From Candidatus Krumholzibacteriota bacterium (GTDB lineage Bacteria; Krumholzibacteriota; Krumholzibacteriia; JAJRXK01): 64,000 bases of DNA. The first letter of the stretch is position 1; every line of letters starts with the position of its first letter. The stretch spans positions 96,001 to 160,000 of the forward strand of contig CAVSGG010000008.1 of assembly GCA_963727455.1 (NCBI GenBank). Direction: 5' to 3'. A model generated the notes under the pieces. The model worked only from the letters and a program-made list of their open reading frames with translations. It was not told the DNA's origin and made no database searches. The position numbers and the translations under genes are program-made. Of this stretch, positions 8,977-55,175 are shown in pieces.

Positions 8977-9899
8977 TGCTTGCCGTTCCCCCCATCGACG
9001 ATTACCTGGAAACTGGGAGGGTCGACCGTGGTGGAGATGACTCCATCGGGTACTTTGACCTTGGGTTCGATCTGATACACTCCACCTTTCGCTTCTTCGA
9101 AGTGCACTACGACACTGAGGTCCTTCTGGGTGATCGCGGCGAGAAGGTGCGCCGGGCCCTTCAGCCGAAGCTTGGCGGTTCGCGGCTGCACGTATACGCG
9201 TGAGGTGTCCACCTGGTCGCTCACCACGCCAATGGGCACGTTGATGAAGCTACGGTCGATGATCTCGTCGATGGCGACGGAGACGTCGGCTTCCACCGGT
9301 AGGAGCACGAGGTCGGCATCGGGGCTGACCAAACGTACGGTTTCACGGAATGAGCGGCGCCGCTTGGAAATCTTGAGCGGCTGTGTATTGACGTGATCGA
9401 GCGAAGCCACCAAGGGAGCCGCACCTTCCACTTTCACTTGTGGTGGGGTCGCTTCCGGCTTCCCGGCCAGAATCAATCCCTCGTCCAGCTTACCGGACAA
9501 AACGACTCGAACCGGAACCGAGGCTTGCGCCTTGGGATAGATCCTGAGGTGCAGCGCGGTGGGGCTCTCGACCGAGAGCGGCGTGCCCCCGTCGACCACC
9601 TCCCGCACCGAGATGTCGTGGTGAAATTCGCCAACGCTCACCGAGGAGAGATCGACCTCCACCTTGCCCCGGCCCTTGTTCAGAAGATCGTGGAGCAGAC
9701 GTTCCAATTTCGATTCTCGGAGCCTTACCCAGATCACTTCTGGCGCCTTGGAGGCCCGAATCGCCAAACTGTCCGGCAAACCGGTAAGTTCCAGAGGCAA
9801 TTCCACGACCTTCTCCACGTCCTGCTGGGCCGCGGCCTGCGCCCAAAGCACGAGGGCAAGGAGCACGCAAACGATTTTGACACTGAGGTTACGGGTCAT
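8973..9899 (-). CDS. CdaR/YbbR-like domain protein
   Basis: N-terminal NLSVKIVCVLLALVLW anchor and three YbbR-like repeats (PPQVKVEGA, PRTAKLRLKGP). Confidence 0.8.
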   Translation of the reverse strand: MTRNLSVKIVCVLLALVLWAQAAAQQDVEKVVELPLELTGLPDSLAIRASKAPEVIWVRLRESKLERLLHDLLNKGRGKVEVDLSSVSVGEFHHDISVREVVDGGTPLSVESPTALHLRIYPKAQASVPVRVVLSGKLDEGLILAGKPEATPPQVKVEGAAPLVASLDHVNTQPLKISKRRRSFRETVRLVSPDADLVLLPVEADVSVAIDEIIDRSFINVPIGVVSDQVDTSRVYVQPRTAKLRLKGPAHLLAAITQKDLSVVVHFEEAKGGVYQIEPKVKVPDGVISTTVDPPSFQVIVDGGNGKQ

Positions 9900-9931
9900 G
9901 TCTGCATGACCTCAACGCGAAGTACGGTCTA

Positions 9932-13539: not shown

Positions 13540-15111
13540 TCAAGGTTGCTCCGGAGCCTTTTTTGGCGAGGGCTTCGGATCGATTTCGAGATAACTGTTC
13601 ATGTCGCCACGGCGCACCAGAAGTCGTATGGGATTCCCATCCTTCGCTCCCTGGCGCGCCTGCAACTGGATCTGAAAGACTGCGTAGGAATCGTCGTTGC
13701 CCTCCAGCGGCACTCCGTCGAATTCCACGATCAGATCTCCCGGACGAAGTCTCGCCCGGTCGGCGGGACTGTTCTTCCACACTCGCACCACCACGATGCC
13801 TTCCTCGTCCGAAAGATCGAACTCCTCTTTGAGGGTCTGCACCTGCGGATCAGGGCTATCCAGGGGCGCCGCGGTGAATCCGAGCCAGGGCTCGGATTCG
13901 CTTGGATTGCCGTTCGCATCGTGGGAGGCGAGCGCCGCCGCTTCGTCGTATTCGTCCAGCACCACATCGAAGTCGAGCGGTTTGCCGTCGCGCATGACGC
14001 GCAGGTGAGCCTTCGACCCCACTTCGGATTCCGCGACGCGGAAACGCAGGGCCGGGATGTGCTCCACGGGTTCGCCGTTGTACTCAGTGAGAACGTCTCC
14101 CGCCTTCAGCCCCGCGCGCGCGCTCGGGGTGTCGGGAAGGACCTCGGTGATCACCACTCCCTGATCCTCCGGGATCGTCTGGCCCTGTTGGCGCAGGTTC
14201 TCGATCTCCGCCATGGTAATGCCGAGATAGCCGCGCCGTACGCGACCGAACTCACGGATCTGCTGATAGACGTAGCTGGTAAGGCGCGCGGGAATCGCGA
14301 AACCGATGCCCTGACCGGCCCGGTTGATGGCGGTGTTCACTCCGATCACGTCGCCGCTGATGTCCACCAAGGGCCCACCACTGTTGCCGGGATTGATCGC
14401 CGCATCGGTCTGCAGAAAGTTCTGGTAGCGCAGCATGTCCGCGCCCTGGATGGCCAGGTTGGCGCGACCCTTGGCGCTGATGACGCCGACGGTCAGGCTG
14501 CCTTCCAGCTCTCCCAGTGGATTCCCAATGGCGATGGCCCAATCACCCACGCGGATTCCGTCGCTGTCACCGAAGCGCAGATAGTGGAGCTCGTGACCGG
14601 GCTCGACCTTGATGACCGCCAGGTCCGTGGCAGGGTCCGCCCCGACCACTTTGGCCGTCAGGGGTTCGCTCACTCCGGCCAACTTGACGTGAATGTTGTC
14701 GGCGTTCTCGATGACGTGGTTGTTGGTGACGATGTATCCGTCGGATGAGACCACGAAACCCGAACCGGCACCGGGTACGTCGAAGTCCGGATGATGGAAA
14801 TCGCGCCCCTTGGGGAAGAACTCGCGGAACATCTCGCGCAAACTGCTATCGCTACTGGAGCTGTGCACGGTTCGAATGGCAACGACTGCAGGAGTCACGC
14901 GCTCGGCCACCTTGACGAAGGGCGAGTGCGGGGTTTGGGTCGCGGGAACTCCGCCCCCTTCCGCAGCAGTGGCAAGCTTGGTCGAGAAAAAGAGGGAACT
15001 CGCGCACAGTACGAGACTACAAGTGAGCAGCACAGCCAGACCCGCAAGTAACTCAAGCCGCTTGCGCGGAGAGGTCGGGGTATGTGAAAACTTGGCGTAT
15101 TCAGTTTGCAT
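13540..15111 (-). CDS. HtrA/DegQ family serine endoprotease with two PDZ domains
   Basis: TNNHV, DLAVIK, QTDAAINPGNSGG catalytic triad; two PDZ domains. Confidence 0.95.
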   Translation of the reverse strand: MQTEYAKFSHTPTSPRKRLELLAGLAVLLTCSLVLCASSLFFSTKLATAAEGGGVPATQTPHSPFVKVAERVTPAVVAIRTVHSSSSDSSLREMFREFFPKGRDFHHPDFDVPGAGSGFVVSSDGYIVTNNHVIENADNIHVKLAGVSEPLTAKVVGADPATDLAVIKVEPGHELHYLRFGDSDGIRVGDWAIAIGNPLGELEGSLTVGVISAKGRANLAIQGADMLRYQNFLQTDAAINPGNSGGPLVDISGDVIGVNTAINRAGQGIGFAIPARLTSYVYQQIREFGRVRRGYLGITMAEIENLRQQGQTIPEDQGVVITEVLPDTPSARAGLKAGDVLTEYNGEPVEHIPALRFRVAESEVGSKAHLRVMRDGKPLDFDVVLDEYDEAAALASHDANGNPSESEPWLGFTAAPLDSPDPQVQTLKEEFDLSDEEGIVVVRVWKNSPADRARLRPGDLIVEFDGVPLEGNDDSYAVFQIQLQARQGAKDGNPIRLLVRRGDMNSYLEIDPKPSPKKAPEQP

Positions 15112-15271
15112 CGAGCACGACCATCCTACTACTGCTCAACCTCTGACCTCGGCCTGATCCCAAGCCCGGGGGCAAATGCAGCTCGGATCGATCGTCCAGT
15201 GGAACGGAGGAGGTTGGGAGCCTCCTGGCAAGCCCGTTCTAGTTCCAGAATAGCAGCAAGCGCCGGCACGG

Positions 15272-15670
15272 TCAATCTGGACGATCGGTCGCCTCCGCTT
15301 CGGCAGCGCCCTCCTCGGCCTGCTCGGCGCTCCGCTCCGTGGTCTCCTCGGCGCCTTCGGCGGCGGGCTTCGACTTGGACTCCCGCAGCTCCTGCATCTC
15401 CTCCTCGGCCTGATGCAGCTCCTCCTGATGGCGTGCAATCCGGCCCATTTCGGCCCTCACGGTGGCATCCGTGCTCAGAACCGCGTTTTCGTCCTCGCTC
15501 ATCAGGCGGTGCACCAGGCGCCCCAGACGCGCGTAATCCCGTTCGAGATCGCGTGCGATTCCATGGCGGTCGTAGGCCCTCATTCCCAGGCGAGCCAGTC
15601 GATCGGTGCCCTGAGCCGCCTCCTGGAACCAATTCCCCATGCTATGCTTGACGTCTTCCCACGAGTTCAT
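15272..15670 (-). CDS. Hypothetical coiled-coil protein
   Basis: AAGGAG RBS before MNSWEDVK; helical, acidic tail. Confidence 0.7.
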   Translation of the reverse strand: MNSWEDVKHSMGNWFQEAAQGTDRLARLGMRAYDRHGIARDLERDYARLGRLVHRLMSEDENAVLSTDATVRAEMGRIARHQEELHQAEEEMQELRESKSKPAAEGAEETTERSAEQAEEGAAEAEATDRPD

Positions 15671-15761
15671 GGCATTCTCCTTCCCGCCCGCGGTTGCCCG
15701 CACCCGGGGCTTCGTCTAACCTGCGTTCACGCCGGCGGGGACGTGGACCAGGAATCTCATA

Positions 15762-16511
15762 ATGACAGAAACCGTCTATTTTGCCAGTGACACGCACTTC
15801 GGAGCCATGGCCGCATCGCGCGAACGAGCCCGAATCCAGCGCTTTCTCAACTGGTTGCAGAGTTTGGAGGATGGCTCCGAGCTCATCCTCCTGGGGGATA
15901 TTTTCGACTTCTGGCTGGACTATCCCACCTTCATGCCCAAGACGCACCTGGAGATTCTCTATGGGCTCAGAAAGCTGCAAGACCGCGGCGGGCAGATCTC
16001 TTTCGTGGGGGGAAACCACGACGTTTGGTGCGCGAATTTTCTGCGCGAGGAGCTGGACATCCCCACGCTCGCCAGCGGTACCGTCATCGAGCGGCAGGGA
16101 AGCAAGCTACGGCTGGATCACGGCGACGGCATCCTGAGCGGCGACATCTTCTACCGGGGCTTTCGGGCGGCGGTGCGCAATCCCTTCCTAGTGTTCCTCG
16201 CCAAGTCCCTCCATCCGGAGATCTTGAACTGGCTGGCCAACCAGATTTCCCATGCCTCGCGCAAGAAAGGCAGGAGTTATGGCAAGGCCTTGGACGGGGC
16301 CATTCGGCGCTACGGCGAGCAGCACGATCACTCGGACGTCGACTACCTGGTGATCGGACACATCCATCACCCCTGCAACGAGAGCTTCGATTCCTGGCGT
16401 CTGGTCTGTCTGGGAGATTGGGTGCAGCACCACACCTACGGGCGATTGCGGAATGGAAAACTCGAGGTTCTCACGGCCGAAGAACCCTCCAGCGAGGCCG
16501 TGGGCGCCTGA
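15762..16511 (+). CDS. lpxH: UDP-2,3-diacylglucosamine diphosphatase-like metallophosphoesterase
   Basis: SDTHFG, LGDIFDFW, GNHD, HGD, GHIH, LGDW. Confidence 0.8.
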   Translation: MTETVYFASDTHFGAMAASRERARIQRFLNWLQSLEDGSELILLGDIFDFWLDYPTFMPKTHLEILYGLRKLQDRGGQISFVGGNHDVWCANFLREELDIPTLASGTVIERQGSKLRLDHGDGILSGDIFYRGFRAAVRNPFLVFLAKSLHPEILNWLANQISHASRKKGRSYGKALDGAIRRYGEQHDHSDVDYLVIGHIHHPCNESFDSWRLVCLGDWVQHHTYGRLRNGKLEVLTAEEPSSEAVGA

Positions 16512-16518
16512 GTGCGAA

Positions 16519-17448
16519 TCAGGGCAGGAAGGCGAAGGACAGCGAGATGCGGTGGTCGTCCGAGAGATCGTTGCCGCTGTCCATGTAGGCGTAATCCACG
16601 CTCAAGCTTCCCGCGTGATAGCCCAGGCCCGCCGTGAGTCCGTAGGAATCGTAGTTGATGCGATAGCCGGCTCGCAGCGCGAAGCTCGAGTGGAGCCTCA
16701 TCTCGCCTCCCACGTGAATACGTCCATTGCCGTCATTGGGCAGCACGAGGTCGGTGGCCAGAGTGAGGTTTTCCGCCATCCCCTCCCCCTCGGTGTGCGG
16801 GGTGTAGCTCGCGCCCAGACGGGTGGTGAGGGGCAGATCGTAGGGTTCTTCCTTCAGGGTCATCTGTCCGCCGAGATTGGCGACGGCCGCGGCCAGGGTC
16901 AGACCGGGGATCTTGCTGCGGTGGCTGATCCCCAGATCCAGGGCCAGGCCCGCGGCGCTGTAGGCATCGATGCGCTCGTACAGGAACTTCCCTACCAGGC
17001 CCAGCGAGAAATCCTTGAATTGGTAGGCGTAGCCCAGGCCCACCGCGAGTTGGTAGGGCTGGAACTCTCCCTGGTACACGCCGATTCGATCCAGAGTGGT
17101 GCGTGGGATGGACTCACTATAGAAGCCACTGAAGATGAGACCGATGGCGCCTTTGGGGAGGCGATGACTCACAGCCGCAGCCTCCTGCCGGAAGAGGCTG
17201 AAATGTTCAACGTGCTGCAGGGTGAGGTTCGTTCCCTCAGCGAGCACGAGGTTGGCAGGGTTGTAGTACATGGCCGTCGCGCCGGTCGACTCGGCAACGC
17301 CCACGTCCCCCATCGCGCCGTTGCGGGCCCCGATACCGAACCTGAGGGAGAGAAATCCCGCGTCCCCGGGATTTCCCGCCCAGGCAGAGGGCGCGATCGC
17401 CAGGAAGACGAAAAGCGTCGCGATGGCGAAACAGGATGATTTGCGCAT
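16519..17448 (-). CDS. PorV/PorQ family outer-membrane beta-barrel
   Basis: Signal peptide; FLSLRFGIGARNGAMG...YYNPA; C-terminal VDYAY...HRISLSFAF; start trimmed to MRKSS. Confidence 0.8.
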   Translation of the reverse strand: MRKSSCFAIATLFVFLAIAPSAWAGNPGDAGFLSLRFGIGARNGAMGDVGVAESTGATAMYYNPANLVLAEGTNLTLQHVEHFSLFRQEAAAVSHRLPKGAIGLIFSGFYSESIPRTTLDRIGVYQGEFQPYQLAVGLGYAYQFKDFSLGLVGKFLYERIDAYSAAGLALDLGISHRSKIPGLTLAAAVANLGGQMTLKEEPYDLPLTTRLGASYTPHTEGEGMAENLTLATDLVLPNDGNGRIHVGGEMRLHSSFALRAGYRINYDSYGLTAGLGYHAGSLSVDYAYMDSGNDLSDDHRISLSFAFLP

Positions 17449-17540
17449 GAGGCTCCCCCAGGGATTCGAATCGCGCCCGCGGCGCGGATTGGAGAATTGA
17501 GTATACAGCTCCCACAGAGACCTTGGCAAAGACCAGCGTC

Positions 17541-20500
17541 TCATCGAACGATAGCAAAGGGTTTGAAGGCGACGCTGCCTTCGGTTTCCACCTTCGCCAC
17601 ATAGAGCCCGGCGACCAGACCATTCAGAGGGATCTCGAACTCCAATTGACCCGGCCCCTCGCCGCGGACTGTGCCCGTCTGGCGCACCACCTGTCCTTGC
17701 AAGTCGAAGACGGTCGAGCGCACCTGAGCCGAGCGGTGCAGCTGAATTCGCACATGCACGCTGGGACCGTCCGCCGGGTTGGGGTAAAGAACGAGGTCCT
17801 CGTCGGCGAAGGCCTCGCCTCCGCCAGGAATGGCACTCCCGCTCGAGTCGAGCGCTTGGTGTCCGGTTCCCCAGGCATCCGCCCCACCCTGGTTCCAGGG
17901 CGCAAAGCGCGTGCTGGGAATCGACAGACCATAGACGCGGATCTCCCCCACGCGATGGGTGAGTGGCAAGCGCTCCTCGAAGTCCGTTCCCGTGAGAGCG
18001 TCGAAGCCCGAGGCCAGGACGAGTTCGAGCTGCCCGTCTCCGTCGAGATCCGCCACTGCGGGCGAGCCGCAGGGTTCGCCGGGACCCTGGATGGGCCATC
18101 CTGGCAGACTCTCAGATTCCAGATTCACCGCGTGGACCCGTCCCACCCGATCGTGCCACAGCGCTTCCACTCTTCCGTCCCCGTCGAGATCCACGAGCAG
18201 CGGAGCGGCGGGAACGCTGCCCTCGATCGCTGCCGTGGAATAGCCGGGCTGGTAGGGGCCGCCGGTGAGCTGCGCGAGATTTCGGTCCAGAAGCCACAGT
18301 TCATCGCCCGCCACCACGGCCAACACGGGGTCGCCGTTCTCGCGCGCTGGCCCACCCACCAGGGCCGACCAAGGCGTGGGAAGGGTGCGGCCGTGGGCGG
18401 TCAGCGGGGTGCGAGGAACTCCCATGGTGTCGATCAAGGCCAAGCCCAGCCACATGTCACCCCGGAAGCGGTAGCTCAAGAGCTCCGCCGGTGTCTCCAG
18501 AACCAGTGGGACCGGCGGCGTGAGCGCCGCTTTGGCGAGCTTTGCGGGCCCGCGCAGGAGAATGCGGCCCGCGCGATTCTCAGGGATTCCCCCACCGACC
18601 GCGAGATAGAGTACTCCGGTGCCGCCATCGATCAGCACGCCGCGGCGCGCGGCTCCGTCGCAACGATCGGGGGAGATGCTGACGCTGGGTGCCGCCGTGC
18701 CGTCCCACTGCACGAGACTCGCGCCCACCGGATCCCCCTCCTGCAAGCCGCGGAAGATCATGACCAGATCGGCCTGTGACCGGGGTATGGCGTCGGCGAG
18801 AGTGCCGCTATGGGGAGCCAAGATGCAGGGGTGCGAGAGCTGCGTCGGCGCTCCATCCACCTGGGGTGCGGCCAAAAACAGCCCAAAGGTCGCCGGATTC
18901 CCATCGCCATCGCGCAGCTCGTTCCCCTGCGGGTCGAAAGCGAAGACCCCTTCTGCTGCGCTGAGGAAGATCTCCGGAGTACCATCGCCGTCGAGATCGC
19001 CGACGACGGGGGCGCCCAGCCAGTTCGGCGGACCATCAGCTCCGGTAGCGCGCGCGAGCACGGCGGGATTGTTGGGATCGGCTCCGGCTGACCAGGGTGA
19101 GAGATCGCCATGCAAGACCAACAGCGCGCCCTCATCGCCCGCCAGGAGGATCTCGGGTACTCCGTCGCCATCCAGGTCCGCGAGTCGCACATCGTCCAGC
19201 GGCCCATCCGCCGCAAGCTTGCGCTGCGCCTGAAGGGTGACGCCGGCCGCCTGCAGCTCAGGAGCGAAAGCGAGATCGAAGCCGAGTCGATCCCGATACA
19301 GAAAGCGGTTGGCATAGGGACAGTCGGGACCCGGATTGCACGCTTCGATCCCCAGCTGCACGCTGTCGATTCCGCTGATGGAGAACCCGATCGAGGCGCC
19401 ATCATAGCTCAAACTGCTGGGCAAGGTGTCATCCGCGAAGCGCGTGCCGAAGAGTTGGTCTCCGATGAGCACACCCTCTCCGCGGAAGCAGTCGCGATCC
19501 CATCCCAAGAGGAAACGCGAGGCCTTGAGGGTATCGAGATCCTGGACACCGTCCGCTTCTTCGAGGTCGACGCCCTTGCGCTTGGGATCGGCATTGATCG
19601 TGTTCGATCCGGCGTTCAACGACTCCTGGATGACGCGCTCGTCGATGTGCCACACGTAGAGGCCGTTGCCGCGCCCCGGCCCGCGCAGTGAGCCATCCGA
19701 GTCGTTCACGGGGAATTCGCTCATGAAGAAATCCCACTCCGCCCCAAGCGTGCTCTCCCAGGTGTCAGTCGCGGGGTCGAAGGTCGATGTGGGCTCTCCG
19801 TCTCCACTACTGCTGTCCGCGTCGTAAAAATCCGGCACCCGGTTCCCGTTGAGGTCGTCGAAGCTGAAAGTGAAAGTCCCGTCAGGATCCTGAAGACGGT
19901 ATTCCAGCAGGAAGTACTCGCGGTCGGTGATGGGAACTTTGACCAGGAGGGTGTCCCCCACTCCCGTCTCGATGGGCGGCAACTCGACCCGCGTGTCGGA
20001 ATCGATCGTCACGGCATCCACCCAGCCCATGAGCATGCGATTCATGGCACATGGCTCGGCGGGAACGATGCCGAGTCCGGTGAAAAGCCCGTAACCCATC
20101 AGGCCGTAGTTCCCGATCCCCTGACTGTCGGGACGTCCTTCTGGAGTGAAGTCCGCCAGACTGAGCATTCCCAATCGCAGCCCCACCTCAAAGCAGTAGA
20201 CGCCTCGCATTCCGAAAAAACCATTGAGGCCGAGCGAGGCCACCGCGTCTTGCGTCTCGGTTTCAGGCAGAATGAGGACGTGACGGATCAGAACTCCATC
20301 CTGCGTGCTGATCCCCGGCTCGGTGAGAACGGTGTCCGCCATGGCCTGCTCGAAATCGCGGCGATCCAGGTAGTTCGAAAATAGCTGCTGAGGGCTGTCG
20401 TTGTTGATGTCGGTCTCTCGTCCGGCGCCGGCGTGGATGAGGACCAGCGTATCGAAGTCGTTGAAGTCCACTTCGGGGTCGATGGCCTCCACCACCTGCT

Positions 20501-21083
20501 TGGCCATCTCCACCAGACGATCGTTGTCCTCGCGGTCCGCGCCGTAGTAGCCCATGGACTCGGGTAGATTCACCAGAGTCGACAGTGCCTGCCACTGCAG
20601 AGTGAACTTGCCGCGCGAGACGGTGCTGAAGTAGTCCGCGGTCTTGCGCATCTGCAGGTCGAAGTAAGTGGAATCGTGCGCGGCGAATTCGTAGATCGGA
20701 TTGCCCTGCTGGTCGGTGATCGCCCGGCCCAGATCGTCGTAGAGGAAGTTGCCCTCTCTGGCGGGAGTTGGCCAAGCGGCGAACTGCGTACGGTCGCGAC
20801 CCCAGAGCAAACTGTCGGCGAAGTCACACCCCACGACCAGCATCCGCAGAGTGTCGGGAGCCTTGTGCGAGCGCAGCGCTTCCATCTGGCTCGCCTTGGC
20901 TCCACTGACCCGCATTCGGGCCGACGAGCGCGCCAGCAACTGACGCGTTGCATCCTTGGCGGAAAGAGCGCGGCTCTGAAACCAGGGCGCTGTTTCAGCG
21001 CTTCTCGCCGCACCGGCAAGGAGGTGGATTGATAAGAGGGTGCAAACCAGCAGGGCAGCCCAGGACCCACGGCTCGAGCTCAT
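17541..21083 (-). CDS. Secreted M6 (InhA)-like domain + FG-GAP repeats + T9SS-type C-terminal domain
   Basis: LIHAGAG, GLMGYG Met-turn, EYFLLEYR, YVWHIDE; DLDGDG repeats; YPNP...FDLQG...GLYVAKV...IVR tail. Confidence 0.8.
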   Translation of the reverse strand: MSSSRGSWAALLVCTLLSIHLLAGAARSAETAPWFQSRALSAKDATRQLLARSSARMRVSGAKASQMEALRSHKAPDTLRMLVVGCDFADSLLWGRDRTQFAAWPTPAREGNFLYDDLGRAITDQQGNPIYEFAAHDSTYFDLQMRKTADYFSTVSRGKFTLQWQALSTLVNLPESMGYYGADREDNDRLVEMAKQVVEAIDPEVDFNDFDTLVLIHAGAGRETDINNDSPQQLFSNYLDRRDFEQAMADTVLTEPGISTQDGVLIRHVLILPETETQDAVASLGLNGFFGMRGVYCFEVGLRLGMLSLADFTPEGRPDSQGIGNYGLMGYGLFTGLGIVPAEPCAMNRMLMGWVDAVTIDSDTRVELPPIETGVGDTLLVKVPITDREYFLLEYRLQDPDGTFTFSFDDLNGNRVPDFYDADSSSGDGEPTSTFDPATDTWESTLGAEWDFFMSEFPVNDSDGSLRGPGRGNGLYVWHIDERVIQESLNAGSNTINADPKRKGVDLEEADGVQDLDTLKASRFLLGWDRDCFRGEGVLIGDQLFGTRFADDTLPSSLSYDGASIGFSISGIDSVQLGIEACNPGPDCPYANRFLYRDRLGFDLAFAPELQAAGVTLQAQRKLAADGPLDDVRLADLDGDGVPEILLAGDEGALLVLHGDLSPWSAGADPNNPAVLARATGADGPPNWLGAPVVGDLDGDGTPEIFLSAAEGVFAFDPQGNELRDGDGNPATFGLFLAAPQVDGAPTQLSHPCILAPHSGTLADAIPRSQADLVMIFRGLQEGDPVGASLVQWDGTAAPSVSISPDRCDGAARRGVLIDGGTGVLYLAVGGGIPENRAGRILLRGPAKLAKAALTPPVPLVLETPAELLSYRFRGDMWLGLALIDTMGVPRTPLTAHGRTLPTPWSALVGGPARENGDPVLAVVAGDELWLLDRNLAQLTGGPYQPGYSTAAIEGSVPAAPLLVDLDGDGRVEALWHDRVGRVHAVNLESESLPGWPIQGPGEPCGSPAVADLDGDGQLELVLASGFDALTGTDFEERLPLTHRVGEIRVYGLSIPSTRFAPWNQGGADAWGTGHQALDSSGSAIPGGGEAFADEDLVLYPNPADGPSVHVRIQLHRSAQVRSTVFDLQGQVVRQTGTVRGEGPGQLEFEIPLNGLVAGLYVAKVETEGSVAFKPFAIVR

Positions 21084-23230: not shown

Positions 23231-24165
23231 GACGAGCCCTCCTTCCCGGTGCCCCGCGGCGGTAGCGCCTCACGGGCCTGCTTGAGCTCGGGCAAGCCGT
23301 CTACCGGCTGGTAGCCCCACATCAAGCTAATCGTGCCGTTGTTCGGCGAGATGTTCACCACGTAAACCTTCGCGTAGTTGAGCTGCTCACCGTCTACAAT
23401 CTCAAGAAAATAACTGTGTCCCTCGATCGCTTCCATCATCCCGGTCTGCGACCAGCCGAACTCGGGGGCATAGCTGGCCACGTCGAAATCGACGTTCCCG
23501 TAATCCTGCATCCTCACCCAGGGAATCTGAGCCGTGAAGACGGGAACGCCGCTCACGAAATCGAAGCTGAGATCGCTAAGAAGGTCGGCGGGATAGCGTC
23601 GCGTTTCCTCACTGAAATCGAAACCAGCGCGCGAGGAATCCATGCTGGCCGCGCTCAGGGTCACCGTGCCTTCCGGCCGCGGGGTGTCCACCACGTAGTC
23701 GGTAGAAAGCGCGCTCTCGTTGCCCGCATCATCGAAGGCGGTGATCGCGTAATAGTAGTCGAAACCGTTGTCGACGGTGTGATCCTCGAAGATCAGATAG
23801 GGTCGTCCACCGCTGGTGTCGGGATCATAACTGACCAAGTTGGGAATGTCCGGGTACGGCGTCCCCACCTCGAGTAGCTTCTCCCAGTGGATGGGGTTGC
23901 CGTTGCCATCGGCTTCGGTGGTCGAATAGACACGGTAGCCGGCCAGGTCCGGCTCGCGGTTAGCGTTCCAGATGACCCAGATCACCGAATCGCCGGTGAT
24001 TGAGCTCACCCCATTGGGAATGGCCGGCGGTGTGACGTCCACGATCTCGTCGTTCTCGTCACAGCCGGCAGAGAGGAGAGTCAGAAACGCCAGCGAGAGG
24101 ACGAGGAGCACACGGAAATCCCTCAAGGAAGTGCTCTTGGTCTGTGCTTCAAGTGCTGCGTTCAT
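23227..24165 (-). CDS. Lipoprotein with FN3-like domain
   Basis: Lipobox SAGC; WNANREPDLAGYRVY...YYYAITAFDDAGNES FN3 signature; GAAGGAG RBS. Confidence 0.8.
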   Translation of the reverse strand: MNAALEAQTKSTSLRDFRVLLVLSLAFLTLLSAGCDENDEIVDVTPPAIPNGVSSITGDSVIWVIWNANREPDLAGYRVYSTTEADGNGNPIHWEKLLEVGTPYPDIPNLVSYDPDTSGGRPYLIFEDHTVDNGFDYYYAITAFDDAGNESALSTDYVVDTPRPEGTVTLSAASMDSSRAGFDFSEETRRYPADLLSDLSFDFVSGVPVFTAQIPWVRMQDYGNVDFDVASYAPEFGWSQTGMMEAIEGHSYFLEIVDGEQLNYAKVYVVNISPNNGTISLMWGYQPVDGLPELKQAREALPPRGTGKEGSS

Positions 24166-24222
24166 GGCTCTCTCCTTCAGCGGAAGGCCTCGTCCCCTCC
24201 CTTGTCCCCACCCTCTCTCTTC

Positions 24223-24237
24223 GCAGCCGCCATGCCA
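24223..24237 (-). promoter_or_regulatory. Sigma54 -24/-12 promoter for the lipoprotein-DUF4384 operon
   Basis: TGGCATGGCGGCTGC (GG-N10-GC) about 58 bp upstream of the ATG. Confidence 0.65.
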
Positions 24238-24277
24238 CCGCCTGGCACGGGGGCTTCCGTGAGCGGAGCGTCTCTTC

Positions 24278-24290
24278 CAAGATATTGACT
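24278..24290 (-). promoter_or_regulatory. IHF-like binding site
   Basis: AGTCAATATCTTG versus WATCAANNNNTTR (1 mismatch), about 40 bp upstream of the sigma54 site. Confidence 0.45.
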
Positions 24291-24474
24291 TCTAATGGCT
24301 TAGACTCGTAGATCCGGAAGATCTCAGAAATTAGAGCAGGCAGATTGGCTTCTCCGAGAAGCGGAAGTTGTCGCCATCCAGATATAAAAACGTCCCATGG
24401 AGGGGACACTGCCAAGCCCCTGCTCCACGGCATCCTCGACTTCCTCAGCGCTGGAAAAATGGCGTTGGAACGCA

Positions 24475-24503
24475 CGAGAGCCGCCCCTGAGGGACGGCTC
24501 TCG
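24475..24503 (-). terminator. Strong hairpin closing the putative RNA
   Basis: CGAGAGCCGUCCC-UCA-GGGGCGGCUCUCG; no U tract immediately after it. Confidence 0.45.
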
Positions 24504-24852
24504 CAACCATAAGAGCGTGAGTGGTGCACCAGATCCCCTTGAGCGGCCGCTCCAAGATCTCGCCAGTCCTGGATGCCGGGGGTGTCTCGTGCTGGATCTC
24601 TCCTTTTACCTCTCTCACTGCATCCCATGGGATGTTTCGGAGGACGGTGCGATAACGCTGTCTTCCTAGCTTCCGCCGAGATCCTCAGCCCGACCCCACC
24701 TCGTGCTGATGAATCGACGAACCGAATTGATGGAAAACAACCTCTTTCAGCCGGTTGACGGAGAGGAGCGTTCCCACCCCGTCCTCCGATAAACTCAGGC
24801 CCAGAAGGCCAACTGGACGACCGGACCACGTTTGCCTAGTGACTCCAGCCGC
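24475..24852 (-). ncRNA. Putative sigma54-dependent structured RNA (contains a 30-codon sORF)
   Basis: Follows the sigma54 promoter; 23-position long-range stem 24767-24789/24637-24659 and 13-bp terminal hairpin 24475-24503, whose G-U pairs form only on the minus strand; ends inferred. Confidence 0.45.
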
Positions 24853-24863
24853 ACATACCCATT

Positions 24864-24878
24864 GCACCCTCCATGCCA
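24864..24878 (-). promoter_or_regulatory. Sigma54 -24/-12 promoter
   Basis: TGGCATGGAGGGTGC(AA), GG-N10-GC, about 200 bp downstream of the bEBP gene. Confidence 0.7.
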
Positions 24879-24916
24879 TGGGGACGGCGTCCGGATAGAA
24901 AGTGTATCTTGTTATA

Positions 24917-24929
24917 AATCAGTAAGTTA
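24917..24929 (+). promoter_or_regulatory. IHF binding site
   Basis: AATCAGTAAGTTA matches WATCARNNNNTTR in an AT-rich patch about 40 bp upstream of the sigma54 site. Confidence 0.6.
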
Positions 24930-25079
24930 TAAACGGAAGTCCGCACCCTTGCCGGGGAGATTTTCGCGTCCGGATCCAGTTAGAAAGTTCCTTGATAGGC
25001 GCGGAAGGGGGAATTTTCGTAAGTACCAAAAAACAGAGAACTTATTCGCTATAAAAAGAATTGATGAAGAATGTCCGCA

Positions 25080-28000
25080 CTAGTTAGGGAGTTTGAGACC
25101 ATAGCGCTTGATCTTCTGCAGGATGGTGGGATAGCTGATCTTCAGCCTTCGGGCTGCCTCGCTGCGATTCCAAGCGCAGCTCTTCAGCGCTCGCTCCAGG
25201 AGGACTTTCTCGAACTGGGCGACCTCGCTCTTGAGCGGCTGAATCCGATCAAGCGCCTCCTCAGCGTCGACGGCTCCCTCGGGGTCATTTCCACCGCGGC
25301 AGAGGCTGGGCAGATGCCGGGCCTGCAGACGCTCGTCGCCGGCACTCAAGATGACCGCCCGCCGAATCACCTTCTCCAGCTCGCGGACGTTGCCCGGCCA
25401 AGAGTAGGCGCGCAAACCACTGGTAAAGGCGCGCGTCATCTGAGGGATCGGCCGCCCCAGTTCACTCGAGACGCGGTCGAGGTAGTGGCGGGCCAAGAGG
25501 AGGATGTCGTCGGCGCGCTCGCGGAGCGGCGGAACGTCGATGGGAAAATCCAGCAGGCGGTAGTACAGATCCTCCAGGAACAGGTCCTTGCGCACCATTT
25601 CTTTCAGATCGCGCATGCTCGCACTGAGTACGCGGACGTCCACGGTTTGACTCTCCCCACCACCCACCGGTCTCACTTCCTTGCTGTCCAAGAAGTGCAA
25701 GAGCTTCGCCTGCATGGGCAGGCTCATCTTGCCGATCTCGTCCAGGAAGAGGGTGCCTCCATCGGCGCTAGGAATGAGCCCCTTGCGAGTTCGATCCGCG
25801 CCGGTAAACGCACCCTTCACGTGGCCGAATAACTCGCTCTCGAGCAGGCTCTCGGGAATGGCGGCGCAGTTTAACGATACGAAGCGCTGGTTTCCGCGCG
25901 GGCTGAAGCGGTGCACCGCGTAGGCCAACAGACCCTTCCCGGTTCCGGTCTCGCCGGTGAAAAGCACGGAGTATGGAGTGGGAGCGACTTTCGCGCAGAG
26001 ACGCAGGACCTCCACCATCGCATCGCTCTCGGTGATGATGTTCTCGAAGGCCTCTTCCAAGAGGAACGCGCGATTCCCGCTGTCGCTGCGCCCGCCACGC
26101 GCCAAATCGAAGATCGGGGCGCGCAGAAGTTCCACGTAGCTCGCCGCCACCGCCAGGGCCTCGTTGTTGAATCCGCGCGGAGCACCCTTGCGCGGCGCGG
26201 TGTCGAAGTAGATCAGAGCGCGCAAGGAACCGGAACTTCCCAAGGGCAGCGCCGCGGCGGCGCCGATCTCGCGAAGCTCTTCATCCTGAAGCACGTTCCA
26301 CGTTTGGTCGGCTTGGGGATTCGTCCAGACCCTGGGGCCGGTTGCCTCGTCCAGGAGCGCGAAGACGTGACGCGCGATGGTAGCGGCGCGTCCCCGCGCC
26401 AGGTGGTGCGCCGACAGAATGCGAGGGGCCTCGCTTGCCTCCTGCACCGCCAGGAAGGCCCGATCAGCCTGTAGACGATCCGCGAGGGCCAGTAGCATGC
26501 TGCGCAGATTCCGCTCGGCATCCGGCTTTTCGGTATCCAGGAGTTCGGGAAGATCGGCCAGCGCCTGGTAGCTCGAGGAGATCGTTTCCGCGTCCTGCGA
26601 AAGTGCTTCCTCGATTTCCGCTCGCAGAGCCTGTACCTCGCCCATGAGACTTCCGTGATTCCCCGTGCAGGAGAGGCGCTCGAGTTCGTACAGAGCCAGC
26701 AGGGCTTCGTCGTATTCGCCCAAGTTCAGTTCCACGCGGGCAATATCCAGTTGCACCTGGCAGGGCGAATATTCCCCGTCCTCGTCGGGAATCTCGGACA
26801 CCTCGCGCAGGCGTGTGCGCGCCAGAAGCAACGATTCGCGTTCGGGCTGAGCCATGTGCAGATGCACTAGATCCCTCAGGATTCGCCGCATCTGGACCGG
26901 CAAGCGAAACTCGCTGACCCGATTCAGTGCCGACTCCAAGGCGTCCCGGGAGGCCTGGTACTTTCCCCGCGAGGCCAGAGCCAATCCGATCACGCGCTCG
27001 AAGAAAGGCAGCTCGAAACGCTCGCCGCAGGCCTCGGCGATGCGAACCCCCTGGTTGGCCAGAGCAAGCGCAGCTCCCTCGTCTCCCCGGCGCAGGGCCA
27101 ACTCGGCACGGCGCCGGAGAACTTCGGCCTGGATGTCACTGGCCGGGCCCATGCTCTCGGCCCGTTTCTCGGCCAGACGGTAATTGAGTTCAGCCTCTTC
27201 GAAGCGTTCCTGAGCGGCCATGAGGTCCCCCAAGAACTCGTCCGCGAGCGCGAGATCGCGGCCGGTCTGGCGACGCTCGGCCAGCACCCGGGCCTCCAGC
27301 AAATTCTGCTCGGCCTCCGAGTACCGCCCATCCTCGATGAGAATCTGTCCTTTGAGTAGTCTCAGCCGGGTGAGCCGGCTCTGATCGCCCAGATTGCGAC
27401 CCAGCTCCAGCCCTCGTTCCACTTGAGCCATGGCCTCGGCTCGCCGTCCCATCTTCCGGTAGAGCACCGCCATGCTGTTGTGAAGCACTGCGAGCTCGTG
27501 GGAATGGCCGCGGTCGCGCACGATGGTCTCGGCTTTGGAGAAGAGCTGGAGTGCGCTGGACCAACGGCATTCGTTCTTGGCCAGAGTCGCCAGGTTGATC
27601 AGGGCTTGCGCCTGACCCAGCGGGAGATCCACGCGCCGGAAGGTCGCCAGGGCATCCTGAAAGAACTCGTCGGCCTTTTCGGTGCGTCCGAGGCGGGTGG
27701 CACAGTTCCCCAGAATCATCTGGGCGTTCCCCACCTCGCGGTGTTGGTCGCTCGTGGCGAGGTCCCGGAATCCCTCCATCGCTAGGGTCTGTGCCTTGCG
27801 GTACTTGCCCTGTCGGAAGTGGACGAGAGCCCTGCGGACTCTCAACACGGCGTGAGCCAGCGCAGCGCCATTGGGAAGCAGGTTTTCGGCTTGGTTCAGC
27901 TCACGGGAGGCGTCAGAGGGAAGTCCCTGTTGAAGCAAACAGTCGCCCAGCTTGCGGTGGAGCCGGGCCAGGGTCTCCGCCGGCACGCTCCCCGCCTCAG

Positions 28001-28172
28001 CGCCACTACGCAGCGCGGAACGGTAGTACTCCATGGCCGAAGAGTACGCCGCGCCGTCATAGTGCAAGTCACCCACTTGCTCCGTACGCAACAGAGTGGG
28101 GTTCTCAGCGCTGTTGCTTGGACTTGAGGAGGAGGGCCTGAAGCCCTCGTCTCCCTCTCGAAACTCCTGCAT
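25080..28172 (-). CDS. TPR-repeat sigma54-dependent transcriptional activator (TPR-GAF-like-AAA+-Fis HTH)
   Basis: About 530 aa of TPR-like helical repeats; GETGTGK, LNCAAIP, ELFGHVKGAFTGA, LFLDEIG, WPGNVREL, NRSEAARRLKIS; start at MQEFREG after AAGGGA. Confidence 0.92.
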   Translation of the reverse strand: MQEFREGDEGFRPSSSSPSNSAENPTLLRTEQVGDLHYDGAAYSSAMEYYRSALRSGAEAGSVPAETLARLHRKLGDCLLQQGLPSDASRELNQAENLLPNGAALAHAVLRVRRALVHFRQGKYRKAQTLAMEGFRDLATSDQHREVGNAQMILGNCATRLGRTEKADEFFQDALATFRRVDLPLGQAQALINLATLAKNECRWSSALQLFSKAETIVRDRGHSHELAVLHNSMAVLYRKMGRRAEAMAQVERGLELGRNLGDQSRLTRLRLLKGQILIEDGRYSEAEQNLLEARVLAERRQTGRDLALADEFLGDLMAAQERFEEAELNYRLAEKRAESMGPASDIQAEVLRRRAELALRRGDEGAALALANQGVRIAEACGERFELPFFERVIGLALASRGKYQASRDALESALNRVSEFRLPVQMRRILRDLVHLHMAQPERESLLLARTRLREVSEIPDEDGEYSPCQVQLDIARVELNLGEYDEALLALYELERLSCTGNHGSLMGEVQALRAEIEEALSQDAETISSSYQALADLPELLDTEKPDAERNLRSMLLALADRLQADRAFLAVQEASEAPRILSAHHLARGRAATIARHVFALLDEATGPRVWTNPQADQTWNVLQDEELREIGAAAALPLGSSGSLRALIYFDTAPRKGAPRGFNNEALAVAASYVELLRAPIFDLARGGRSDSGNRAFLLEEAFENIITESDAMVEVLRLCAKVAPTPYSVLFTGETGTGKGLLAYAVHRFSPRGNQRFVSLNCAAIPESLLESELFGHVKGAFTGADRTRKGLIPSADGGTLFLDEIGKMSLPMQAKLLHFLDSKEVRPVGGGESQTVDVRVLSASMRDLKEMVRKDLFLEDLYYRLLDFPIDVPPLRERADDILLLARHYLDRVSSELGRPIPQMTRAFTSGLRAYSWPGNVRELEKVIRRAVILSAGDERLQARHLPSLCRGGNDPEGAVDAEEALDRIQPLKSEVAQFEKVLLERALKSCAWNRSEAARRLKISYPTILQKIKRYGLKLPN

Positions 28173-28250
28173 GGCATCCCTTGGGCGAGAAGGGTTCAAC
28201 TAGAGATACCGCTTTGGGAAAAAAGCGAGCTTCCTCGACTTCGATTTGTG

Positions 28251-28604
28251 TCAGCGAGCCTCCACGATTCGAAGCGTGCTTCCTTGGATCCATTTCACGA
28301 GTCGCTGCCAGAGACTCTTCATCAACGAAGAATCGTCCGAGCTGGAACTCGTCGGAGCCCAGACTGACAGGTTTCCCCCCGTCAACTCATCGGGATCTCC
28401 ATTTTGCGTGGTCGGAGTATCCTGGATGAAAATTCCACCATGGCTTCCGGTCGATCCCCCTGGGCTCGGCGCGGGGTTGTATACGCTGTTGTCGCAATCG
28501 ACTCGCAACGAAATTTCCGCGGCAGCGGCCGGCATCACCATCCACGTCATCGTGCAGATCAAAAGAGCGATTCCAATCGTGAGGCGCTTGCTCTTGCTCA
28601 TCAT
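28251..28604 (-). CDS. Small secreted pre-protein / candidate signalling pro-peptide
   Basis: GAGGAG RBS; Sec signal (KSKR-hydrophobic-AAAA); Gly/Ser/Pro-rich linker, GDPDEL, C-terminal amphipathic helix. Confidence 0.7.
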   Translation of the reverse strand: MMSKSKRLTIGIALLICTMTWMVMPAAAAEISLRVDCDNSVYNPAPSPGGSTGSHGGIFIQDTPTTQNGDPDELTGGNLSVWAPTSSSSDDSSLMKSLWQRLVKWIQGSTLRIVEAR

Positions 28605-28710
28605 GGCCAAATCTCCTCAGGCAATCTTGCTCGGCTCAGGCGGTAAGGCCGCAGATTGCCTCCGGCAGACCTAAATCTGTGTTGTGGATCATACCACAAA
28701 TCTAGGATAC

Positions 28711-28740
28711 ACAATACGTAGGAGCAACGCACGGGGTCAA
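28711..28740 (-). promoter_or_regulatory. Sigma70-type promoter of the peptide/activator pair
   Basis: TTGACC-N18-TATTGT. Confidence 0.55.
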
Positions 28741-28758
28741 GCGCCCCGGACCAGCTCA

Positions 28759-30123
28759 TCAGCTTGAGGTCCTCAAGCCGTAGCGCTGGATCTTCTTGTA
28801 CAAATTGCTGCGCTGCATTTGCAGTTCCTCGGCGGTTCGGCTCACGTTGTAGCCGAATTCCCGTAGCTTCCCCTGCAGGAAGATGGCCTCGCTGGCCGCC
28901 TTGAAATCGTTGAAAGTGGGGCTCGAGAAGACGTCCTCGTGCTCCCGCTTACTCCCACCCTCGCCGGCCAGGACGCTCAAGTCCTCCTCGTGAATCGTCT
29001 CGTCCGGCGCGACGATCGCCAACCGTTCCGCCAGATTTCTCAATTCACGGACATTCCCGCGCCAGGGCTGCCGTTTGAGCAGTGCCATGACCCCCCGATC
29101 GACTCCCTTGACCTTCTGCCCCATCTCCAGTGCGGCGCTCCGGAGGAAGTGAAGGAAGAGACTTTCGATGTCCTCAGGTCGTTCCCGCAAGGGGGGCAAG
29201 TGGATCTGGATGACGTTGAGGCGGTAAAAGAGGTCCTGCCGGAAGCCGGTGCTTTCATCGCTCAGCTCACGGTTCGTGGCCGAGATTACCCGCACGTCGA
29301 CGTGGATGAGATCCTGTCCCCCGACTCTCTCGAAGGTGGAGGTTTCCAGAGCCCGCAAGACCTTGGCCTGTGCGGCCTGGCTCATGTCGCCGATCTCGTC
29401 CAGGAAGAGAGTCCCCTGGTCCGCTCGTTCGAACTTTCCCAGTCGCCGCCGTTCGGCCCCGGTGAACGCGCCCCTTTCGTGTCCGAAGAGCTCGCTCTCG
29501 ATGAGGTCATCGGGAATCGCGGCGCAGTTCAGCTCCACGAAGGGGCCGCTGGCGCGCGCCGAGCGGGCGTGGATGGCACGGGCCAGAAGTTCTTTGCCGG
29601 TTCCGTTCTCCCCGGTGATGAGAACCCTCGCGGGTGTCGGGGCGACTTTCTCCAGCAACTCCTTCACGTGATGAATCGAAGGGCCGTCGCCGATGATCTC
29701 GCCGCCGCGGGCGGAGGATTCGGCAAGCTCCCGATTGGCTCGCTTCAGTCGCGAGTGCTCCTGGGCCTTCTGCACGCGGACCTTCAGAGCCTCACGCTTG
29801 AACGGCTTTTCCAGGAAGTCGTAGGCGCCCCGTCGGATGGCTTCCACTGCGTTCGCCACTGCCTCGTGCGCAGAGATCACCACCACCGGCACTTCGAGCC
29901 CCTCGTTCTGCATCACCTTCATGACTTCGAAGCCGTCCATGCCGGGCATCTTGACGTCCAGCAATAGGACTTCACAGACACCTTTGCGCAATTCCCGGAG
30001 AGCGTGCGGACCGTCCTCGGCTTCGGCCACTTCAAAACCGTCGTACTCCAGAACTTGCCGCACCATCGCGCGCAGTCCTGAATCGTCGTCCGCAATGAGG
30101 ATTCGGCCCTTCTTGGAATCCAC
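28759..30123 (-). CDS. NtrC/NtrX-family sigma54 response regulator
   Basis: Receiver (ADDD, LDVKMP), GENGTGKE, GAFTGA, HTH SNLYKK. Confidence 0.93.
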   Translation of the reverse strand: MDSKKGRILIADDDSGLRAMVRQVLEYDGFEVAEAEDGPHALRELRKGVCEVLLLDVKMPGMDGFEVMKVMQNEGLEVPVVVISAHEAVANAVEAIRRGAYDFLEKPFKREALKVRVQKAQEHSRLKRANRELAESSARGGEIIGDGPSIHHVKELLEKVAPTPARVLITGENGTGKELLARAIHARSARASGPFVELNCAAIPDDLIESELFGHERGAFTGAERRRLGKFERADQGTLFLDEIGDMSQAAQAKVLRALETSTFERVGGQDLIHVDVRVISATNRELSDESTGFRQDLFYRLNVIQIHLPPLRERPEDIESLFLHFLRSAALEMGQKVKGVDRGVMALLKRQPWRGNVRELRNLAERLAIVAPDETIHEEDLSVLAGEGGSKREHEDVFSSPTFNDFKAASEAIFLQGKLREFGYNVSRTAEELQMQRSNLYKKIQRYGLRTSS

Positions 30124-30138
30124 TGTCTCTCCCCACGC

Positions 30139-30528
30139 TCAGAGAAGAAAATCCTCGAGTTCCTGAGCTTGCGGACCGGCGGGGCCGCGAGCCGCGAGAC
30201 TCGGGTTCTCGCTCAAGTTCAGCCAGCGCTGCAAGAAACTCTGCAACTCGAACTCAACCGTTCCAGCGCCGGCAGGCGCCCAGCGGTACACCCGCTGTCT
30301 GCCCTTGGTCTCCACGGCCAAGAGTCCGCAACGGCGGAGGATCCCCAGATGATGGGAGACCCGCGGTTGCGCAGCACCGAGTTGTCGGCAGATCTCAGAA
30401 ACCGACGCCGGCTCCTCGGCCACGAAGCTCAAGATTCGCAGGCGGAGATCGTCGCCGACTGCGGAGAGCAGCGCTGCCAAAGCGGCCTCGCCGCGCGTCT
30501 TGGTTCCTTCTATACTCTTCTTGGCCAT
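30139..30528 (-). CDS. ArsR/SmtB family HTH transcriptional regulator
   Basis: LRLRIL..SVSEICRQLGAAQPRVSHHLGILRRCGLL..GRQRVY. Confidence 0.85.
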   Translation of the reverse strand: MAKKSIEGTKTRGEAALAALLSAVGDDLRLRILSFVAEEPASVSEICRQLGAAQPRVSHHLGILRRCGLLAVETKGRQRVYRWAPAGAGTVEFELQSFLQRWLNLSENPSLAARGPAGPQAQELEDFLL

Positions 30529-30608
30529 CTCGTTCCGCGCTTCTACTACGAGTTTCGTAGCAACTTGATCCCTAGTTCCACTCAGTGTCAAGTGATCGCG
30601 AGCCCAGA

Positions 30609-55075: not shown

Positions 55076-55175
55076 GTCGGCAATCTCTTGGGAGGAAAGG
55101 AGTTGGATCGTCACAGTATCATTGAGCAGCATACTGCCAGGCCCCGCATTGAGCAAGGCGCGGCTCAATGCGGCC

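Follow-up and report, generated by a model that had tools for sequence, protein, structure and literature searches.

The 64-kb window analyzed here, a stretch of contig CAVSGG010000008.1 from an uncultured soil-type bacterium of the Candidatus Krumholzibacteriota, contains a gene for a sigma-54 activator with tetratricopeptide repeats (TPR), followed by 914 bp that hold two sigma-54 promoter motifs, P1 and P2, and a conserved structured non-coding element. All features of this locus are read on the minus strand of the window. Two other Candidatus Krumholzibacteriota metagenome-assembled genomes contain the locus (L001 and L002). They were recovered by scanning genome contigs with the N-terminal 715 residues of the activator, and the comparisons made below draw on these three loci. 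The matched segment of those 715 residues is 93% identical in L001 and 85% identical in L002, and the whole activators share 94% and 86% identity with that of the window. Synteny is the same in all three genomes, from a gene for a 552-aa protein upstream, through an ArsR-family gene, to a gene for an M6-like protein and the genes beyond. Gene calls in L002 need care, as RlmN aligns in two pieces, a DUF4384 gene in two, the M6-like gene in four and a small open reading frame (ORF) in three, all in different frames (6555-7617, 9600-9955, 15083-16691 and 17120-20674), which points to assembly indel errors or gene decay. The features of the activator gene and of the 914 bp behind it are as follows.

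25080-28199, minus strand: activator with TPR, GAF-like, AAA+ (GAFTGA) and HTH_8 regions
24166-25079: 914-bp stretch without a credible protein gene, between the TPR activator gene and a lipoprotein gene
25066-25049 and 24998-24974 (together 24974-25066), minus strand: two conserved ATCAA-N5-TTTNT blocks
24917-24929, plus strand: IHF-like site 1, between the conserved blocks and P1
24878-24863, minus strand: sigma-54 motif P1, TGGCATggaggGTGCA
24465-24852, minus strand: conserved structured non-coding element with a core of about 388 nt
24358-24410, minus strand: second conserved island, with a 6-bp hairpin or dyad (GTCCCC..GGGGAC-like) and then GATGGCGACAACTTCCGC
24278-24290, minus strand: IHF-like site 2, upstream of P2 and less conserved
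24237-24223, minus strand: sigma-54 motif P2, TGGCATggcggCTGC, with a leader of about 45 nt to the ATG at 24165

The activator has 1030 aa when counted from ATG 28172 and 1039 aa from TTG 28199, the start of the longest ORF. The ATG is preceded by a Shine-Dalgarno-like AAGGGA and the TTG by no such sequence, and ATG 28172 is likely to be the true start. Its domains, numbered on the 1039-aa form, are arranged in the following order.

26550-28052, minus strand: TPR superhelix, residues ~50-550, about 12 repeats (Pfam, AlphaFold2 and Foldseek)
26064-26534, minus strand: probable divergent GAF domain, residues ~556-712 (Atlas feature search)
25539-26039, minus strand: AAA+ sigma-54 interaction domain with GAFTGA, residues 721-887 (Pfam)
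25101-25223, minus strand: Fis-type HTH_8 DNA-binding domain (Pfam)

Pfam places TPR_12 (2.1e-21) within residues 119-312 and TPR_MalT (2.3e-15) at residues 121-312. AlphaFold2 modelling of residues 1-715 from a three-row alignment gave about 24 paired helices over residues 49-548, with a predicted local confidence (pLDDT) of about 70-87, and these modelled helices would correspond to about twelve TPR-like repeats. The model is unreliable at residues 1-50 and 558-715, with a pLDDT of about 30 in the GAF-like stretch. Foldseek searches against the PDB returned generic TPR superhelices (OGT, LGN/Pins, TONSOKU and designed consensus TPRs), and the sequence matches of the TPR part are led by kinesin light chains (4.3e-8), with a Rap protein at an expectation value (E) of 4.4e-4 amid generic TPR proteins. 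The TPR-like N-terminal half that the initial annotation had described is thereby borne out. The GAF-like region that it had placed next is weakly confirmed: residues ~556-712 have no match at E<=10 in Pfam (one query sequence) or in a PDB sequence search, nor does the AlphaFold2 model support the call, whereas a language-model Atlas search, taken as a lead only, groups them with GAF clusters (0.91-0.94), and its ten best matches all fall in one family/clan.

The C-terminal part leaves less room for doubt. Sigma54_activat (PF00158, 1e-63) covers residues 721-887 and profile positions 1-167 of 168, and is followed by AAA_lid_14 at residues 893-974 and HTH_8 (PF02954, 1.2e-11), a helix-turn-helix (HTH), at residues 993-1033. 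The Walker A motif (GETGTGK at 749), GAFTGA (at 796) and the Walker B motif (DEIG at 820) are invariant across the three orthologues, in agreement with the intact GAFTGA and the HTH noted earlier. By sequence, the PF00158 match, the intact GAFTGA and Walker motifs and the Fis-type HTH mark the protein as a predicted bacterial enhancer-binding protein. The best NCBIfam alignments, to NorR and NifA, cover the AAA+/HTH part and all fall below the model cut-offs. On the combined Pfam, AlphaFold2 and Atlas results, we read the architecture as TPR, a probable divergent GAF, AAA+ and HTH_8. Literature searches on TPR-containing sigma-54 activators found no description of it, and the term "TPR" does not occur in the main text of a 2011 survey (PMC3162934).

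P1 and P2 both show the exact -24 GG / -12 GC spacing (TGGCAC-N5-TTGC), with two mismatches to the 11 specified consensus bases in P1 and, by reading, three in P2; a scan with the generic consensus picks up P1 and misses P2. Motif matching alone proves little, and the case for the two promoters is made from position and conservation. A narrow pattern, TGGCAYGNNNNNTGC, which was drawn post hoc from P1 and P2 themselves, has only these two exact matches in 64 kb against 0.34 expected (4 of 100 shuffles reach two), and it matches exactly twice in each of the related loci, at orthologous positions. P2 is identical in all three loci, and in a three-way alignment the P1 of L002 varies in its spacer and keeps the GG and GC elements. 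P1 and P2 are thus conserved where the initial annotation had seen two sigma-54 promoters, and we predict that both are active. The IHF-like sites that it had seen near them are present as well. A search with WATCAANNNNTTR at up to one mismatch gave 12 matches in the whole window, two of which lie equally far, approximately 66-79 nt, upstream of the predicted P1 and P2 starts. As read from the alignment, site 1 stays within one mismatch in L001 and L002, and site 2 does not.

The two ATCAA-N5-TTTNT blocks precede the P1 start by some 135 and 205 nt, as islands in a spacer of 49-63% identity, and are candidate activator binding sites. The conserved island at 24358-24410, upstream of P2, is 91% (L001) and 79% (L002) identical. 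In L002 both partners of one pair in its terminator-like hairpin (24410-24389) have changed, and the island may be either an RNA terminator or a palindromic upstream activator site of P2. The blocks upstream of P1 and P2 have no clear motif in common, so that each promoter could have an activator of its own. A loose TTTNTANCNGGAY family with four copies was considered as a shared upstream motif; it is poorly kept in L002 and is therefore not relied on.

Adjacent sigma-54 targets had been claimed. P2 heads a protein operon, but no protein gene lies behind P1; what follows it is the non-coding element, which the initial annotation overlooked. Three-way identity is 33-48% per 40-nt block upstream of P1, reaches 73-78% from the predicted start (~24851) and 90-98% over 24792-24593, stays at 75% or more to ~24480 and then falls to 30-38%. 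Pairwise, the 388-nt core shares 92% (L001) and 88% (L002) nucleotide identity with the window; three neighbouring genes reach 87-88% and 69-78%, and the spacers on either side 25-63%. In nucleotides, the core is more strongly conserved than the surrounding coding genes. The predicted fold has a minimum free energy of -181.8 kcal/mol (z -3.74), a stability that none of 100 shuffles attains. The structure conservation index, which compares the consensus fold with the mean single-sequence energy, is 0.94. Of the twelve core pairs that vary, two break, and the other ten stay paired with a change in one partner only, for instance from U-G to C-G or from A-U to G-U. Variable columns number 11 of 254 at paired positions and 37 of 138 at unpaired ones (p 4e-10), a comparison in which the structure comes from the same alignment; with single-sequence structures the bias gives p 0.002 (window) and 1.3e-4 (L002).

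The element occurs once in each of the three loci, and no extra copies were found there. Indels of 1-3 nt between the genomes disrupt every reading frame, indicating that the element is not coding, and the 226-aa ORF that the window has here is absent from L001 and L002. Rfam 15 returned no match at E<=1 over 23800-29000 (5.2 kb), and at E<=10 over 24340-24900 (561 nt) its only matches scored 17.9 and 10.4 bits against gathering thresholds of 50 and 60. ARAGORN found no tRNA or tmRNA in the region, the single tRNA of the window being a tRNA-Met elsewhere. A 14-bp GC-rich hairpin (24503-24475) without a U-tract closes the core; some 55 variable nt beyond it comes a 6-bp hairpin, with a U-rich tail in the window only. 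These two alternative 3' hairpins would give an RNA of about 390 or about 470 nt. Since it is conserved beyond the flanking genes, folds strongly, is non-coding and matches no Rfam family, the element is a candidate sigma-54-dependent structured RNA without a described family. As a separate observation, CATCAATTC from the block upstream of P1 (25058-25071) recurs in a conserved unpaired loop of the RNA (24724-24737), which may be coincidence.

Two other readings of the element were weighed. That it is constrained as DNA, as an extended enhancer, or as a small-protein gene, with an incidental RNA fold, is very improbable. The three sequences are so close that identity alone cannot separate these kinds of constraint, and a palindromic protein-binding site would account equally well for the hairpin at 24410-24389. 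However, conservation begins at the predicted start and not upstream, where enhancers lie, the variable positions avoid the predicted helices, and the disrupted frames and the missing 226-aa ORF argue against a protein product. It is unlikely, though less so, that the 385-nt element is a structured cis-regulatory leader of the operon behind P2, with P1 and P2 as tandem promoters. The element lies upstream of that operon on the same strand with no canonical terminator between them: no U-tract accompanies the 14-bp hairpin, and the U-rich tail that follows 24410-24389 in the window is missing from the relatives. The AAGGAGAGATCCA stretch of the element resembles the ribosome-binding region of the operon, AAGGAGAGAGCCA. 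Yet two spacers with 25-39% identity lie between the element and P2, P2 has a conserved upstream block and an IHF-like site of its own, 385 nt is long for a leader, and complementarity to the operon start is at chance level (203 of 300 shuffles reach it). An idea of a CsrB-like sponge was dropped, as most GGA triplets lie in predicted stems and not in loops, and RNAduplex pairing with local translation starts was set aside after it gave unrealistically long duplexes for all genes.

The operon behind P2, and the second activator gene upstream of the TPR activator, complete the locus.

30139-30591, minus strand: ArsR-family gene, at the upstream end of the described locus
28759-30123, minus strand: receiver-domain (NtrC-type) sigma-54 activator, 454 aa
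23227-24165, minus strand: predicted lipoprotein, 312 aa, lipobox LSAG|C, first gene after P2
21389-23230, minus strand: DUF4384 protein, 613 aa; N-terminus signal-peptide-like, tail rich in Arg, Ser and Pro
17541-21083, minus strand: M6-like protein, 1180 aa, with FG-GAP repeats and a type IX secretion system (T9SS) C-terminal sorting domain

The 454-aa activator matches Response_reg (9.5e-31), Sigma54_activat (1.3e-67) and HTH_8 in Pfam and shares 97% (L001) and 91% (L002) amino acid identity with its orthologues; no histidine kinase gene lies within the window. In the operon, the 312-aa lipoprotein belongs to no Pfam family and is conserved in L001 and L002, and the second protein matches DUF4384 (PF14326, 1.9e-16). 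The latter has a Tyr/Trp/Pro-rich middle, and its 284-residue C-terminal tail contains 58 Arg, 49 Ser and 33 Pro. The best NCBIfam match of the M6-like protein is NF052323, "T9SS-dependent M6-like inactivated metalloprotease" (4.6e-70, below the model cut-off), and its sorting tail matches Por_Secre_tail. No HxxxH motif occurs anywhere in the protein, which fits the "inactivated metalloprotease" label, and by sequence it is a secreted pseudo-protease, probably under sigma-54 control.

We conclude, with moderate confidence, that the locus is a conserved sigma-54 regulatory island made up of the TPR activator, two promoters, a structured RNA and an envelope operon. Conserved sites within the 914 bp behind the TPR activator gene would be the targets of one or both activators, and DNA bending at the IHF-like sites would help the bound activator to open P1 and P2. 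P1 would yield a structured regulatory RNA of about 390-470 nt, and P2 the envelope operon, with its lipoprotein, DUF4384 protein and T9SS-exported M6-like protein lacking the catalytic motif. The division of the promoters between the activators, where the RNA ends, what it does and all that is said here of a signal we infer. By analogy with other activators, the N-terminal TPR/GAF part would restrain the AAA+ ring until a ligand or partner binds.

Several points weigh against this conclusion. The generic sigma-54 consensus at up to two mismatches occurs 11 times in the window against 13.4 expected. Covariation in the element is not significant, as the observed score is equalled or exceeded in 161 of 500 shuffles, and the sole pair changed on both sides lies outside the core. 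Neither of the two hairpins marks a 3' end of the RNA with a conserved U-tract, and instead of a free RNA the element may form a long leader for the operon downstream. No target or partner was found for it among the local translation-start regions, where the longest complementary runs were reached by 294 (activator leader), 278 (small-ORF start) and 203 (lipoprotein start) of 300 shuffles. No rpoN gene was seen within the 64-kb window. Finally, the power of conservation is limited, since only three close genomes are available, with activators 86-94% identical.

The closest known arrangement is that of cbrB and crcZ. In excerpts of two reports, crcZ maps directly downstream of cbrB in all analysed Pseudomonas genomes and depends on CbrB and RpoN (PMC5113210), and its activation is also IHF-dependent (PMC6296734). 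As there, an activator gene at the present locus is followed by a -24/-12 promoter with IHF (here a motif only) and then by a non-coding RNA of several hundred nt. The RNA differs in that it matches no Rfam family, whereas CrcZ is presumably one of them, and in being GC-rich and highly paired, with no A-rich Hfq motifs evident by reading. CbrB is moreover a receiver-domain activator, in contrast to the TPR and GAF-like activator found here, and the phylum is different.

Between the two activator genes lies a small ORF with a signal-like N-terminus, on which the initial annotation had built a model of peptide sensing. Its features and those around it are listed here.

28711-28740, minus strand: sigma-70-like motif ahead of the small ORF (TTGACC, 18 nt, TATTGT)
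28251-28604, minus strand: small ORF, 117 aa, with start ATG 28604 and stop codon 28251-28253
28347-28421, minus strand: DTPTTQNGDPDELTGGNLSVWAPTS, the best-conserved stretch of the small protein (alignments)
28150-28230, minus strand: gap after the small ORF and into the first codons of the activator (alignment)

The small ORF is 117 aa long (119 aa in the ORF list, from an upstream TTG), with a GAGGAG Shine-Dalgarno sequence 8 nt upstream of its ATG. As first reported, it is co-oriented with the activator and ends 78 bp before ATG 28172, and this adjacency is kept in all three close genomes. The previously claimed Sec export is consistent with the N-terminus, in which a K/R-rich n-region, about 20 hydrophobic residues and AAA|E are seen by eye (residues 1-29); all three orthologues have such a signal-like N-terminus, and that of L002 has a cleavage-like site at ASA|KE. 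Compared with L001, dN is 0.078 and dS 0.315 (dN/dS 0.25), and 24 of 41 differences fall at third codon positions. An overlapping ORF on the opposite strand carries stops in L001. From the dN/dS, the third-position bias and the broken opposite-strand ORF, the small ORF is, at the sequence level, a real gene under purifying selection, more weakly constrained than neighbouring genes with dN/dS of 0.06 and 0.02. In L002 the small ORF is broken by two frame changes, and all three pieces retain protein sequence. Assembly indels are the likelier cause, since other L002 genes are broken as well and the core segment, in the out-of-frame middle, differs from the window by nine synonymous changes and one non-synonymous change (manual count); real decay is the less likely view.

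The mature part of the small protein (88 aa) is rich in Ser, Gly, Thr, Asp and Pro. Its conserved parts are a 25-residue core, DTPTTxNGDPDELTGGNLSV[WY]APTS, and an amphipathic helix at the C-terminus. AlphaFold2 gave a low-confidence model (mean pLDDT 49.9) without secondary structure at residues 42-93 and with a helix at 94-118, in 119-aa numbering. In the Atlas, the best matches (0.81-0.83) are to unnamed clusters of ~110 aa, commonest in Candidatus Eiseniibacteriota, which are a lead only. The small ORF is probably co-transcribed with the TPR activator. Upstream, a scan with the sigma-70-like consensus found one site against 0.9 expected, which is weak alone; the -10 region is kept in all three loci. 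Between this putative promoter and the small ORF lies an imperfect palindrome, TTGTGGTATGATCCACAA (28676-28693, minus strand), whose arms are partly kept in L001 and L002 and which could be an operator or a hairpin. Downstream, about 75 nt of 28150-28230 are identical in all three genomes despite a dS of ~0.6 between them, preceded by a small hairpin (CGCTTT..AAAGCG) with a variable loop length. This invariant stretch suggests translational or RNA-level control of the activator.

In the model of peptide sensing, the 117-aa protein would be Sec-exported and cut outside, and a fragment would be re-imported, bind the TPR groove of the activator and switch on its ATPase, as an RRNPP-like signal wired to sigma-54 in a diderm. 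The conserved adjacency and orientation, the purifying selection, the signal-peptide-like N-terminus and the strongly conserved core fit this model, as does a mature part predicted to be mostly unstructured, as expected of a protease substrate. The TPR grooves of LGN and OGT bind extended peptides, which also counts in its favour. However, the TPR superhelix is of a generic kind, and the best 50 Foldseek matches listed include no RRNPP receptor. The 64-kb window has no oligopeptide permease (Opp) gene, and in a diderm the peptide must also cross the outer membrane. The GAF-like domain beside the AAA+ domain is an equally good candidate sensor, of the conventional small-molecule kind, and the three genomes are too close to reveal co-variation. 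A co-fold of TPR residues 45-560 (three-row alignment) with residues 32-119 of the small protein (two rows) scored 0.01 against a mark of 0.32; it ran without controls and counts neither for nor against binding.

In the RRNPP systems themselves (Rap, NprR, PlcR, PrgX and AimR), as here, a cytoplasmic TPR regulator adjoins a small gene, the product of which has a Sec-signal-like N-terminus at the present locus. Of the five RRNPP criteria given in an excerpt of PMC10075063, three apply here, including TPRs and direct gene neighbourhood, with the Sec signal read by eye, but the two on length do not: the receptor has 1030 aa as against 250-500 aa, and the small protein 117 aa as against 10-100 aa for a propeptide. 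The output here is an AAA+ sigma-54 activator and not an N-terminal HTH or a phosphatase, and the host is a diderm outside the Firmicutes, with no specific structural similarity between the receptors. We regard peptide sensing as improbable, and any link of the small protein to sensing is putative. The full proposal, in which an exported peptide acts as a cell-cell signal read by a TPR/GAF/AAA+ protein with a new class of structured RNA as its output, in a diderm of the Fibrobacterota-Chlorobiota-Bacteroidota (FCB) group, is more improbable still.

An envelope role for the small protein, without contact to the TPR domain, has a weight similar to that of peptide sensing and is perhaps a little less improbable. 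The protein would be a periplasmic or envelope accessory or feedback part, acting through an unlinked sensor kinase whose target is the receiver-type activator, much as ZraP and CpxP serve in envelope feedback on ZraSR and CpxAR, respectively. The position of the gene between a kinase-less receiver-type activator and the TPR activator is consistent with this role, as is a regulated operon that codes for envelope and secreted proteins. Sigma-54 regulons are commonly linked to the cell exterior, according to an excerpt of the 2011 survey (PMC3162934). Against it, Pfam and NCBIfam assign the small protein to no family at E<=0.01, which places it outside the ZraP/CpxP/Spy family too, it is predicted to be largely unstructured and not all-helical, and the window holds no candidate kinase.

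Returning to the regulatory island and its activator, two further groups of regulators resemble the latter in part. Like those of the NifA/FhlA/NorR type, it has a GAF-like domain directly N-terminal to AAA+ and HTH_8 at the C-terminus; unlike them, it has about 500 additional N-terminal TPR residues, and its GAF call comes from the Atlas search. GAF domains occur in about 10% of sigma-54 activators, as stated in an excerpt of PMC3162934. With the MalT/STAND regulators it shares the TPR_MalT match and the combination of a long helical-repeat sensor, an ATPase and a DNA-binding domain. Its ATPase is a sigma-54-type AAA+ with GAFTGA and not a STAND NTPase, and its repeats are at the N-terminus.

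Elsewhere in the window, two unrelated genes have unusual domain content. A 999-aa protein (38496-41495, plus strand) shows an unusual pairing of a receiver match, exactly at the Pfam cut-off (30.2 bits), with PPDK_N, a phosphoenolpyruvate-utilising, ATP-binding domain. A 1171-aa fusion protein (51653-55168, minus strand) combines B12-binding, MeaB GTPase and methylmalonyl-CoA-mutase domains, a layout that we take to be that of fused isobutyryl-CoA mutase (IcmF).

Sigma-54 activators are a classic fusion of sensor and motor, with receiver, PAS, GAF, V4R and similar domains as known sensors. The activator family, the sigma-54 promoters and sigma-54-dependent RNAs beside activator genes are of kinds already known. 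What appears new here is the TPR-GAF sensor combination, a superhelix of about 500 TPR residues ahead of a GAF-AAA+ core that is absent from the literature found, and the RNA without a family. Among the matches listed for the Krumholzibacteriota literature, regulation is absent from titles and abstracts. The element would join a short list of sigma-54-dependent RNAs as a large structured RNA without a family, in a phylum without a cultured model, and it is directly testable because its putative regulator and promoter have already been identified. If the small exported protein were the signal, peptide signalling through a cytoplasmic receptor would extend beyond Gram-positive bacteria.

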